IMG/VR virus record: IMGVR_UViG_3300009124_000007 | Location: 12,967-76,966 of that record | Direction: 5' to 3' (one strand) | DNA: 64,000 bases | Source: a virus | In this document: positions 4,561 to 44,702 of the stretch, one piece after another | Numbering within the stretch: the stretch's first letter is position 1 | How the letters are laid out: the number at the start of each line of letters is the position of its first letter | The notes under the pieces: generated by a model | The model's input: the letters and a program-made list of their open reading frames with translations, nothing else | The model's database searches: none | What the model was told of the DNA's origin: nothing | Translations under genes and position numbers: made by a program

Positions 4561-4634
4561 CGAGCATTAGCGCAGTTTGGTAGCGCATTCGCTTTGGGAG
4601 CGAAGGGTCGTAGGTTCAAATCCTACATGCTCGA
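4561..4634 (+). tRNA. tRNA-Pro(TGG)
   Basis: Cloverleaf: acceptor CGAGCAT/ATGCTCG, anticodon stem TTCGC/GCGAA with loop TT-TGG-GA, T arm GTAGG-TTCAAAT-CCTAC; no encoded CCA. Confidence 0.95.
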
Positions 4635-12248: not shown

Positions 12249-13081
12249 ACCTAAAAACCCCTCTTCGCTATCCTGGTGGTAAATCTCGTGCCACTAAAAA
12301 ACTCGCACAGTTTCTGCCTGACATGAGTCAGGTTCGTGAGTTCCGTGAACCCTTCCTGGGAGGTGGTTCTGTGGCACTCTACATGACTCAGATGTACCCA
12401 CATATGTCTGTATGGGTCAATGACCTGTATGAACCTTTAGTGAACTTCTGGAAGGTCTTGCAGACCGATGGTAAGAAGATGCGCGATGAACTCGTTCAAC
12501 TCAAGAATCGCCATCCAGATCCTGCATCAGCGAAGGTTTTGTTTCTAGAGGCAAAAGAATATCTACAGCATTCTATCAAGAAGACTGAACCTTTTCATCG
12601 TGCTGTTAGTTTCTATGTGGTGAACAAGTGTTCGTTCTCTGGTCTCACTGAGTCTTCTTCTTTCTCGAATGCAGCATCAGATTCCAACTTCTCGATGCGT
12701 GGCATTGATAAACTGCCCGAATACCAGATGCTGATTCGTAACTGGAAAATCACAAATCATTCTTACACTCAGGTGCTGGGTAATGGGGAAGACATCTTCA
12801 TCTATCTCGATCCCCCATACGATATCAAAGACAATCTGTATGGTAATAAAGGTAATATGCACGCTACATTCAATCACGATACCTTTGCAAAGGATTGTGA
12901 GAATCATGCAGAACGAGTCAAGATGATGGTCTCATACAACTCCAGTCAATTGATTCGAGATCGATTCATGAACTGGCATCCTTATGAGTTTGACCATACC
13001 TATACCATGCGATCTGTTGGTGATTACATGGCAGAGCAACAAGAACGTAAAGAATTGGTACTAATCAACTATGGCATTTGA
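12245..13081 (+). CDS. dam: DNA adenine methyltransferase (Dam/D12 class)
   Basis: LRYPGGKS, EPFLGGGSV, YLDPPY. Confidence 0.92.
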   Translation: MNLKTPLRYPGGKSRATKKLAQFLPDMSQVREFREPFLGGGSVALYMTQMYPHMSVWVNDLYEPLVNFWKVLQTDGKKMRDELVQLKNRHPDPASAKVLFLEAKEYLQHSIKKTEPFHRAVSFYVVNKCSFSGLTESSSFSNAASDSNFSMRGIDKLPEYQMLIRNWKITNHSYTQVLGNGEDIFIYLDPPYDIKDNLYGNKGNMHATFNHDTFAKDCENHAERVKMMVSYNSSQLIRDRFMNWHPYEFDHTYTMRSVGDYMAEQQERKELVLINYGI

Positions 13082-38956: not shown

Positions 38957-39125
38957 CGTTGATATTCCTGAACGTCTCACAAAAGAACAGGTTCAGGAAA
39001 TGATCGATAAGGCTATTGACAACCACAATAAAACTGCTACAATGATATCAGCATCGATAGGAGGGGTTCTCCTCTTCTTCTATGCTCATGGTGTACTCGC
39101 TGTGATCGATCGTGTATCACACTGA
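38850..39125 (+). CDS. small membrane protein (start uncertain)
   Basis: VQEMIDKAIDNHNKTATMIS...FYAHG. Confidence 0.55.
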   Translation: MKISSIFGTKTTPSVNSSEDSKQKNQTWTWTKWGNNVDIPERLTKEQVQEMIDKAIDNHNKTATMISASIGGVLLFFYAHGVLAVIDRVSH

Positions 39126-39174
39126 ACAGCACCATGTCGTATAAATAATATGGTAACAATAGTTACCACTTATA

Positions 39175-39434
39175 CGTTCATCTTACAATTATAGTAAGAC
39201 GCAAGTAAGTCGCGGAACGGAGCGTTCATCCTATGTTATCATTGGCACTCATCTTTTTTAGTCACGTCCCAGTGGAGAATTATCTTCGCTGTGAAGACTA
39301 TGAATGGTTGAAGCAGGGACTACAAGAGACAACTCTTTTCACTCCCTTTGAGAAATCTGATATTCTCATCCACTGGATGAATCATACAGATCCTCATTGT
39401 TTTGATAGCAAGGACGCACACGACTGAAGGAACG
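39175..39434 (+). ncRNA. glutamine-riboswitch-like (glnA/Downstream-peptide type) double aptamer
   Basis: Two CGUUCA-stem-CGCA...GGAACG units, AGUA/GAA E-loop, AGUCG/CGACU stem; late promoter TATAAATA at 39140; upstream of YRG peptides. Confidence 0.7.
39233..39427 (+). CDS. 64-aa ORF embedded in the second aptamer
   Basis: GGAG SD at 39219-22, ATG 39233, hydrophobic N-terminus, two Cys. Confidence 0.55.
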   Translation: MLSLALIFFSHVPVENYLRCEDYEWLKQGLQETTLFTPFEKSDILIHWMNHTDPHCFDSKDAHD

Positions 39435-39470
39435 GGATTTAATTATCTCATTTCTTTAGGAGTACCTACA

Positions 39471-39635
39471 ATGAACACACTAACCCTTATCAAGAAGCAG
39501 ATCCAGAAGCAAGCAGCACTTCACGATGCTCAGATTGCGATGACCACTTATCGTGGTGTTCGCTATGAGTGCCAGCAAGGTGCTGAAGAAGTTCATGGAA
39601 CATTCTGCTATCGCGGTCACACTTATAACAAGTGA
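39471..39635 (+). CDS. DUF4278-like YRG peptide
   Basis: AGGAG SD; MNTLTLIKKQI...TYRGVRY...CYRGHTY. Confidence 0.8.
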   Translation: MNTLTLIKKQIQKQAALHDAQIAMTTYRGVRYECQQGAEEVHGTFCYRGHTYNK

Positions 39636-39636
39636 T

Positions 39637-39804
39637 ATGGAAAACTATGTCTATCATCATGATGACATGGATAAAGATAGCAGACCACCCAGTTGTTATC
39701 AACTCAAATATAGAGGAGTAACATACTGGTCCTGCTATAATATGCACTTGCATGAATACTTTGAGCGTCTGCTTGAAGTTGAAGCAAGTAACAGGGGACG
39801 GTGA
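39637..39804 (+). CDS. second YRG-motif peptide
   Basis: MENYVYHHDDMDKDSRPPSCYQLKYRGVTY. Confidence 0.65.
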   Translation: MENYVYHHDDMDKDSRPPSCYQLKYRGVTYWSCYNMHLHEYFERLLEVEASNRGR

Positions 39805-39822
39805 CATACCGTCCCTTTTTTT
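39793..39822 (+). terminator. intrinsic terminator
   Basis: GGGACGGT-GACAT-ACCGTCCC-TTTTTTT. Confidence 0.8.
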
Positions 39823-39858
39823 ATGTCTGCGAATAGATATAGCAGACGCTAATTCATT

Positions 39859-40074: not shown

Positions 40075-40227
40075 ATGGAACAGAGAAAGCTAAAAGAGAT
40101 TATCAATGATCTAGAGAAAGTTCTAGATGATTTGAAATCAGAGGTCTATTCGGACCCTTCTAAATATCTTCAAGACATTGGATCCAATGTCAAGATTGGA
40201 GATGATAACGATGGAGAAGCAGATTGA
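40075..40227 (+). CDS. small hypothetical protein (50 aa)
   Basis: MEQRKLKEIINDLE...LKSEVYSDP, read directly from the sequence. Confidence 0.55.
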   Translation: MEQRKLKEIINDLEKVLDDLKSEVYSDPSKYLQDIGSNVKIGDDNDGEAD

Positions 40228-40660
40228 TTATGAAAACCCCTGGATTTATGAAGGTACTCCCTTCACTAGCGAGGATATTGGTGATTACTACGGGTTTGTG
40301 TACAGTATCCGTAACCTCATTTCTGATAGGCGTTACATTGGCAGAAAGTACTTCTGGTCGTTACGAAAGCCTAGAGGCAAAAGTAGGAGAGTTAGAAGTG
40401 AAAGTGACTGGAAGAAATACTATGGCAGTTCTGATGAAGTTGCTGCAGATGTCAAAGAGTATGGAAAGATACAGTTTGAAAGAACTATAATCAGCCTACA
40501 TAAAACAAAGGGTCAATGCAATTTTGAAGAGACCCGACAACTTTTTCTACACAATGTACTAACGGAGGAGATGTCAGATGGAACACCTGCTTACTACAAC
40601 AGCAATATTCTCGGTCGGTACATGCGGAAGGACTATTTCCGAGGTGGCACTTGCTCTTGA
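40211..40660 (+). CDS. GIY-YIG endonuclease, T4 endonuclease II-like
   Basis: GFVY...RYIGRKYFW...ESDWKKYYGS...YYNSNI. Confidence 0.85.
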   Translation: MEKQIDYENPWIYEGTPFTSEDIGDYYGFVYSIRNLISDRRYIGRKYFWSLRKPRGKSRRVRSESDWKKYYGSSDEVAADVKEYGKIQFERTIISLHKTKGQCNFEETRQLFLHNVLTEEMSDGTPAYYNSNILGRYMRKDYFRGGTCS

Positions 40661-40712: not shown

Positions 40713-40931
<219 letters not shown>

Positions 40932-41633: not shown

Positions 41634-41910
41634 TCTTTGCCAATAGACTCTAAACTAGATGGTTGTAACGCATGAGAGATGTTTATACAACTCGTTGACG
41701 CGAACACCCCAAAAGAGTTTCCCCGTTCTCACAAAACGGGGTGGTGGAGTCAATTATGACCCTCTTAGTCTCGGGAAGACATAAAACTCGCCCTGGTCGG
41801 GATGGTCCTAGGACCCCTGGAGTTTCCTGCTTCTCTCAAAAGCAGGTGGTGCGGATGGGAACTCTCCCGCCTGTTTCTTATTTCAGTAAAAAATAAGTGG
41901 CGAGCCTGCT
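41634..41910 (+). ncRNA. structured ncRNA, manA/wcaG-motif-like, with three UGGYG-tailed pseudoknot units
   Basis: Non-coding gap next to a tRNA; units at 41715-46, 41820-51 and 41871-902 with compensatory changes. Confidence 0.7.
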
Positions 41911-41936
41911 CTGGGGGACTTGACCCTCCCCCTCAA

Positions 41937-42018
41937 GCACATGTGGCGGAATTGGTAGACGCGCTGGGTTTAGGTTCCAGTGACTTATGTCGTGGAGGTT
42001 CAAGTCCTCTCATGTGTA
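41937..42018 (+). tRNA. tRNA-Leu(TAG)
   Basis: Acceptor GCACATG/CATGTGT, D loop GGAATTGGTAGAC, CTGGG-TT-TAG-GT-TCCAG, long variable arm. Confidence 0.93.
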
Positions 42019-44568: not shown

Positions 44569-44591
44569 GGACCTTTACGGAGTCGTTACAA

Positions 44592-44702
44592 ACCCCTGCC
44601 GCTTGACCGAGACTAGGCAGGGTTACCAATCCGTCTCTCATATCCTTACCTGAGGGTGGTAAGGAAATAAGTATCTCCACCATTTCCCTGATGGACCTAC
44701 TT
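44592..44702 (+). ncRNA. structured psbA 5' UTR (PhotoRC-II-like motif)
   Basis: AACCCCTGCC/GGCAGGGTT stem, GAGAC/GTCTC pseudoknot pairing, TCCTTACC/GGTAAGGA hairpin. Confidence 0.65.

Follow-up and report, generated by a model that had tools for sequence, protein, structure and literature searches.

The window analysed here, a stretch of 64,000 nucleotides, is taken from a 77-kb IMG/VR record (IMGVR_UViG_3300009124_000007, positions 12,967 to 76,966) of a T4-like cyanophage, and its nearest isolates are S-RIM8, S-RSM4 and their relatives. A preliminary description of this DNA had placed two glutamine-riboswitch-like RNA units between 39175 and 39434, one nested within the other, with a complete open reading frame (ORF) inside the inner unit. 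The genes and flanking features of the locus are the following:

39140-39147, plus strand: TATAAATA, an exact match to the T4-type late-promoter consensus (predicted promoter)
39150-39169, plus strand (listed on the minus strand): hairpin with an 8-bp stem just before the aptamer
39233-39427, plus strand: embedded ORF of 64 codons, phrog_13397, with its UGA at 39425-39427 in the P3/E-loop
39451-39462, plus strand: region able to pair with 39424-39432, overlapping the Shine-Dalgarno (SD) sequence AGGAG (39458-39462) of the downstream gene
39471-39635, plus strand: downstream gene, 54 aa, YRG/DUF4278-like, phrog_545 (E 5e-33)
39637-39804, plus strand: second small YRG ORF, weak match to DUF4278 (E 0.013, with 39646-39804 as query)
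39793-39826, plus strand: strong terminator-like hairpin, with an 11-bp stem and then a T run

The motif TATAAATA occurs at the equivalent place in several isolates, and other phages carry TTGACT-N17-TATAAT there; the hairpin at 39150-39169 has counterparts of different sequence at the same position in other isolates. Four metatranscriptome studies supplied RNA contigs that together span 39172 to about 39795 with a high summed depth, starting in the bin 39172-39205 and ending at the terminator-like hairpin, and no RNA contig cover is seen between 39036 and 39171. Contigs of this kind neither reveal the ends, strand or level of an RNA nor exclude DNA, and the start at 39172 is taken as a hint. 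Motif and RNA cover together fit a late promoter, short of proof. A near-consensus sigma-70-like promoter (TTGACA-16-TACAAT, 11/12) is also present at 39016-39043, inside the upstream ORF, with no RNA contig cover after it.

The product of the gene at 39471-39635 matches the Pfam family DUF4278 (PF14105) with an E value of 4.7e-4 and 20.9 bits, under the curated cut-off of 25.3 bits, and its translation contains two YRG motifs; the gene is probably of the YRG/DUF4278 type named in the preliminary description. The ORF at 39637-39804 contains a KYRGVTY motif, starts 1 nt past the stop codon of its DUF4278-like neighbour and runs into the terminator hairpin, where it ends, a placement that gives the transcript two YRG peptides. 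Two other cyanophage cis-regulatory RNA families are found within 5 kb 3′ of the element, namely a wcaG RNA (83.4 bits, 41818-41911) and a PhotoRC-II RNA (56.5 bits, 44586-44678). The window also holds three tRNA genes (4561-4634, 40858-40931 and 41937-42018) and an ORF of 160 aa (40178-40660) in which a GFVYSI...YIGRK stretch resembles, by eye, the GIY-YIG homing-endonuclease motif.

The RNA element upstream of these genes is composed of the following parts:

39175-39180, plus strand: 5′ strand of outer P1, CGUUC, and A6 (together CGUUCA), pairing with 39430-39434
39181-39199, plus strand: outer P2 hairpin, UCUUAC (39181-39186) with GUAAGA (39194-39199)
39200-39207, plus strand: CGCA linking strand (39200-39203), then AGUA (39204-39207), the 5′ half of the E-loop
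39208-39212, plus strand: 5′ strand of P3, AGUCG, pairing with CGACU at 39421-39425
39214-39228, plus strand: inner P1 hairpin, GGAACGG, loop AG, CGUUCA
39229-39241, plus strand: 5′ strand of the inner P2 helix, carrying the ORF start AUG (39233-39235); its closing pairs covary
39403-39414, plus strand: 3′ strand of the inner P2 helix, UGAUAGCA AGGA, pairing with 39229-39241
39415-39418, plus strand: second CGCA, the inner linking strand
39421-39435, plus strand: 3′ strand of P3 (CGACU), UGA (39425-39427), E-loop GAA (39426-39428) and GGAACGG, covarying with 39208-39212 and 39175-39179
39430-39434, plus strand: GAACG, the 3′ strand of outer P1, inside GGAACGG

All motifs previously named for the outer unit are found at these positions, and they make up an aptamer of the glutamine-I type. 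In an alignment of 112 distinct related elements, variant-enriched by design, the top pair of outer P1 covaries (C:G 99, U:A 9, U:G 2) and the other four pairs are invariant. The closing pairs of outer P2 covary among 153 unique elements. AGUA is invariant and CGCA nearly so (few UGCA) in sets selected on neither, and the CGCA-AGUA region fits the Rfam Glutamine consensus CG(G)AAGUA. Pairing in P3 stands at 99.8%, with compensatory changes from G:C to A:U at two pairs, and one contig (L123) has AGACU/AGUCU instead and still pairs. The 3′ half of the predicted E-loop alternates between GAA and AAA. In the outer unit of three elements (L039, L070 and L130), a change of A6 to G (CGUUCG) goes together with a change of CGCA to UGCA, and this switch from A/C to G/U suggests that the two bases flanking the P2 hairpin may pair with each other.

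A second, circularly permuted core lies within the outer P3, at the coordinates given to it in the preliminary description. Its P1 is formed by GAACG (39215-39219) and CGUUC (39223-39227) around the loop GAG, and its top pair is changed from G:C to C:G in 50 of the 112 aligned elements and unpaired in none. The inner P2 helix joins UCCU (39229-39232) to AGGA (39411-39414) and UGUUAUCA (39234-39241) to UGAUAGCA (39403-39410), with A39233 bulged. The covariation expected of these long-range pairs is seen at the four closing pairs of the helix, and the native duplexes average -13.3 kcal/mol against -9.75 ± 0.38 for swapped partners, indicating that the ends of the insert are co-adapted. The second CGCA is nearly invariant, including at synonymous codon positions (one UGCA among the 112 aligned elements), and is kept even where the embedded ORF stops earlier. 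The preliminary description had further assigned a GGAG Shine-Dalgarno sequence to the inner P1 loop; these letters are present in the window, however they are not conserved, as the loop is 3-5 nt long with an invariant first G and a variable remainder (AG, UUC, AAC, AA, AUU and others). The pattern of an invariant first G in an otherwise variable loop speaks against a conserved Shine-Dalgarno sequence and fits a linchpin G, the linchpin of glutamine-II being C19:G41 (PMC6698751). The binding-site nucleotides C1-C5, G18, C19 and G35-G41, as defined in PMC6698751, are present in both units with the exception of the inner C5:G36 top pair, which is flipped to G:C in many relatives. From this comparison, we infer that both cores bind glutamine; the inner P1 is capped by just 3 nt, including the linchpin G, which may impose steric strain.

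The four strands able to form P1 helices, labelled a (CGUUC, 39175-39179), c (GAACG, 39215-39219), d (CGUUC, 39223-39227) and f (GAACG, 39430-39434), can pair in a nested (a-f, c-d) or a tandem (a-c, d-f) topology. Behind each CGUUCA come a hairpin and a CGCA (39181-39199 then 39200-39203; 39229-39241/39403-39414 then 39415-39418), AGUA-AGUCG (39204-39212) stands opposite CGACU-GAA (39421-39428), and either topology supplies two complete sets of binding-site nucleotides. For a 262-nt stretch with the element of the window (39175-39435), the minimum free energy and centroid structures are both the nested fold, at -76.1 kcal/mol (z -3.42), and 0 of 200 shuffles are as stable. The tandem fold is less stable by 1.7-3.4 kcal/mol, a gap small enough that it could form transiently during transcription.

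Natural variants, collected first from contigs found via the downstream protein and then via degenerate-pattern scans, separate the two topologies. Among the 69 unique full elements from the pattern scans, c = GCAACGG co-occurs with d = CGUUGA in 67, and a = CGUUU with f = GAAACGG in 9. In the 112-element alignment, 99.9% of cells pair in the nested topology (shuffles 95.6 ± 0.3, with 0 of 500 as high) compared with 88.7% in the tandem topology (shuffles 88.6); cells changed on both sides number 96 in the former (shuffles 32 ± 3.5) and 0 in the latter, and pairs with compensatory change number 6 and 0, respectively. The nested top pairs are mismatched in 2/112 elements for a-f and in none for c-d, whereas the two tandem top pairs are mismatched in 64/112 and 63/112 (56-57%), none of them compensated, and sliding the partners in the nested structure lowers pairing to 26-49%. 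The two a-f exceptions, L358 and L360, look like the spurious upstream CGTTGA match that was exposed for L383 and L414. The nested over the tandem topology is supported by this covariation, a discrimination that comes from one variable pair per P1, in which the flips may reflect few evolutionary events. The structural reading of the preliminary description also holds, in which the outer aptamer is of the glutamine-I type, the inner copy is permuted and the inner stem is looped around a whole ORF.

The ORF at 39233-39427 fills the loop of the inner stem, its AUG within the closing helix and its UGA in the P3/E-loop, as had been described. The frame is conserved as well: an ORF is present in 84/84 unique elements of the first set, in each with its AUG 3-5 nt past CGUUCA, and the stop codon (UGA or UAA) occupies a fixed site in CGACU-GAA in 80 of these and lies about 15 nt earlier, directly before the second CGCA, in the other 4. 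Within the insert, dN/dS comes to 0.31 for the frame of the ORF and to 0.88 and 1.84 for the two others, and length differences are multiples of three; a non-coding insert is ruled out by dN/dS, indel phase and retained stop codons. In 195 of 242 unique inserts, the AUG has two or three of its bases paired. All 83 distinct embedded proteins have a hydrophobic N-terminus in common and keep two cysteines without exception, and their tail, DA(N/H)D, is the translated RNA motif. The AlphaFold (AF2) model of the embedded protein is a confident helical hairpin (pLDDT 84), and the tail dictated by the RNA is disordered. The protein matched no family in Pfam, a fold search of the PDB gave no match at E < 3, its 55 homologues are all hypothetical proteins, and the PHROG families it matches are of unknown function.

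Four insert states were recovered among 153 unique full elements: an ORF in the second hairpin only, as in the window (103), in both hairpins (35), in the first hairpin only (6) or in neither (9). The outer P2 hairpin therefore bears an ORF, of 65-75 codons, in 41 of the 153, and the start and stop codons of these first-hairpin ORFs are opposed in one helix, e.g., UCUUAUG with CAUAAGA. ORF-less forms, with a CUUCGG loop, occur among the RNA contigs too. The presence or absence of inserts is modular. The window protein belongs to phrog_13397, its shorter form to phrog_504 and the first-hairpin ORF of other phages to phrog_6471, and profile comparison connects the three families with probabilities of 98.9%, 88.6% and 92.3%. 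As judged by these comparisons, the embedded gene is a real gene of a small two-cysteine protein family whose relatives occupy one or both aptamer hairpins.

The nested layout was found again in 13/13 phage isolates inspected. Where the neighbouring genes of isolates were inspected, the element usually lies 3′ of the nrdB region and 5′ of small YRG peptide genes and, often, of talC. It is also present in 71 of 80 contigs recovered solely via the downstream protein, most of the remaining 9 being too short on the upstream side. A 35-nt junction sequence occurs in 290 GenBank phage records, none with a feature annotated beneath it. A scan of the genome collection with a 15-mer junction gave chance matches in unrelated bacteria, with the flanking motifs in 0/120. 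The nested element is a widespread family with four insert states, of which the copy in the window is not a unique member.

At gathering thresholds, Rfam reports no glutamine family in the window or in the whole 77-kb record. Relaxed thresholds gave alignments confined to 39172-39226, with Glutamine-II at 28.6 bits (cut-off 33) and Glutamine at 27.2 bits (cut-off 35); the compact reading of these models, which pairs a (39175-39179) with c (39215-39219), is contradicted by covariation. The Rfam Glutamine model applied to a natural ORF-less homologue (L126) scores 46.4 bits (cut-off 35) and pairs a with f, handling the inner unit as a 41-nt insertion in P3; the second hairpin of this homologue is a simple UCCGUC-UUU-GACGGA stem-loop. 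Recognition by the Rfam glnA and Downstream-peptide models, which the preliminary description had put forward as a check, thus holds above cut-off for the ORF-less form with the Glutamine (glnA) model and stays sub-threshold with both models for the window copy, where the 208 nt inside P3 exceed the span of the Glutamine model.

The outer unit shares P1, P2 and the CG(N)AAGUA junction with glutamine-I (glnA motif, RF01739), e.g., the Synechocystis gifB/IF17 leader (PMC6212724), together with the E-loop halves, P3, GAAGGAACG and a DUF4278-like gene downstream. Unlike glutamine-I, P3 of the element is no hairpin and opens into a permuted core and a gene, and the linchpin is C...G (CGCA with GAACGG) in place of G...C. 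With glutamine-II (Downstream-peptide motif, RF01704; PMC6698751) the element has in common the CGUUCA-hairpin-CGCA and GGAACGG cores, the C19:G41-type linchpin orientation and a downstream YRG gene, however the glutamine-II pseudoknot is contradicted by covariation and the element possesses an E-loop and P3. Tandem glutamine riboswitches are listed in a 2022 review as 157 doublets and described as pseudo-cooperative side-by-side systems (PMC9481103), and they resemble the element in carrying two glutamine cores in one leader; in the element, P3 of one core contains the other, this helix is shared and there is a single downstream expression platform. The word "nested" is absent from that review, and its glutamine passages contain no ORF inside an aptamer (PMC9481103). 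By analogy, group I introns with homing-endonuclease ORFs also hold a gene in a helix loop of a structured RNA in which translation and folding compete, but the element comes without evidence of splicing or mobility, and its start and stop codons lie in ligand-sensor helices. Leader-peptide attenuators offer another analogy, since the helices that can form, and hence the output of the downstream gene, depend there on where a ribosome stands on a short ORF before it; in contrast, the embedded ORF encodes a conserved folded protein of 53-75 aa and is not a codon-biased leader, and the competing structure is a metabolite aptamer. A few cyanophages have recorded glutamine riboswitch matches (PMC9964418). 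In the Weinberg 2010 glnA alignment, one metagenomic sequence has the junction, apparently aligned compactly with the rest as flank. No published description of the nested layout was found in the literature searched, which did not include Ames and Breaker 2011 or Ren et al. 2015.

Other readings of the element were weighed against the nested double aptamer. A final fold of side-by-side type-II-like pseudoknots (39175-39179/39215-39219 and 39223-39227/39430-39434) bridged by 39208-39212/39421-39425 would agree with the sub-threshold compact Rfam matches on 39172-39226, with the small lead of the nested fold and with the strand swapping between such cores in the glutamine-II crystal (PMC6698751); however the uncompensated top-pair mismatches in 64 and 63 of 112 elements, together with compensation between the nested partners in the same variant-enriched alignment, leave it disfavoured as an end state and very improbable. 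It is also conceivable, though unlikely, that only the outer unit is a working aptamer and that the inner copy is a degenerate duplicate, a scaffold joining the P3 strands across the gene. The free flipping of the inner P1 top pair (G:C or C:G) next to a nearly fixed outer one, the 3-nt inner P1 cap as an unusual context for a linchpin G and the scoring of solely the outer reading above cut-off by the Rfam models would suit such a scaffold. The other inner ligand-contact nucleotides (CGUU, A6, CGCA, G35 and AACGG) are nevertheless invariant or nearly so, the P2 and P3 helices covary, the first loop G is invariant amid a variable loop, and the second CGCA is unchanged at synonymous sites and retained beyond the earlier ORF ends.

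A further reading accepts the fold and treats the ORF as a tolerated passenger in a permissive loop, translated co-transcriptionally before the helix closes and with no coupling to sensing. The existence of all four insert states, which implies that the scaffold works without inserts, is compatible with a passenger, as are the unconserved GGAG before the AUG and a closing helix that is impossible until about 170 nt after synthesis of the AUG. Yet the AUG lies 3-5 nt past CGUUCA in the elements examined and is mostly paired, stop codons fall within aptamer helices at both insert positions, the stop of the ORF overlaps the strand that can mask the downstream SD, and homologous ORFs are found in both hairpins, pointing to a long-standing association and not a chance insertion. 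Taken together, these features make an uncoupled passenger improbable.

The putative masking strand comes from RNAalifold analysis of the 3′ flank, which pairs CUGAAG (39424-39429) with CUUUAG (39454-39459) in both length classes, a helix that in the window can be extended to 39432/39451. Positions 39426 and 39457 covary (G-C 59, G-U 31, A-U 39, A-C 0). The 6-bp core of this anti-SD helix covers just two SD bases, and the helix uses the P3/E-loop strand, also the site of the stop codon of the embedded ORF. About one-fifth of the elements, including L017 and L253, have a longer 3′ flank (79-88 vs. 54-63 nt), in which a further covarying hairpin, GGAUCC...GAAGGUU, separates the aptamer from the SD.

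We consider it probable that the element is a nested double glutamine aptamer whose gene is closed in the inner P2 helix and whose regulation follows the scheme proposed here. A short phage transcript, bounded by the late-promoter motif at 39140 and the terminator at about 39820, would be headed by the nested double aptamer. Glutamine would stabilise the outer P1/E-loop/P3 and so hold CUGAAGGAA (39424-39432) off the stretch overlapping the SD, turning the DUF4278 gene on. Cellular glutamine riboswitches have been shown experimentally to be ON switches and are linked to DUF4278 (PMC6212724), and sequestration of the SD-masking strand by the folded aptamer fits a switch of this kind. The folded inner unit would at the same time keep the embedded AUG in a helix, such that folding or ligand disfavours initiation. 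Conversely, a ribosome on the embedded gene would melt the inner P2 helix, and on reaching the stop codon in the P3/E-loop it would also melt the outer aptamer and the anti-SD helix; as this stop lies in the SD-masking strand, a terminating ribosome would unmask the SD too, and termination of the embedded ORF may couple to the downstream gene. As the closing helix pairs the AUG and the P3/E-loop contains the stop, exclusion of ligand binding and translation by one another is likely, in that translation would melt the aptamers and make sensing and translation mutually exclusive.

A more elaborate version of this scheme is possible and is proposed here tentatively: a two-way ribosome-riboswitch device, in which the two glutamine sites would form only on ribosome-free RNA and the bound RNA would shut the embedded gene or genes and open the IF17-like gene. 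Its reciprocal outputs would integrate host glutamine and translation, and the protein family and the aptamer halves that enclose it would share a history of joint evolution and duplication.

To our knowledge, no described riboswitch aptamer closes a core helix around a complete selected gene with its start and stop codons in the sensor helices. In the literature searched, no description was found of an aptamer with a second, circularly permuted core nested inside one of its helices. The element therefore provides a testable case of a translating ribosome and a metabolite sensor in direct competition and, if the logic outlined above is true, of one ligand exerting reciprocal control over two gene sets; its natural ORF-less form (L126 or L256), about 85 nt long, would also be a glutamine scaffold with two predicted sites. 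The census of phage riboswitches is affected as well: a 2017 survey recorded no more than two glutamine aptamers in cyanophage genomes and stated that phages use riboswitches rarely (PMC5473149), against the 290 GenBank records with the junction, which are left unannotated because the insert hides the element from covariance-model scans. Given the resemblance of the downstream gene to IF17, the glutamine-synthetase inactivating factor, the element may enable infecting cyanophages to adjust the nitrogen assimilation of their host.
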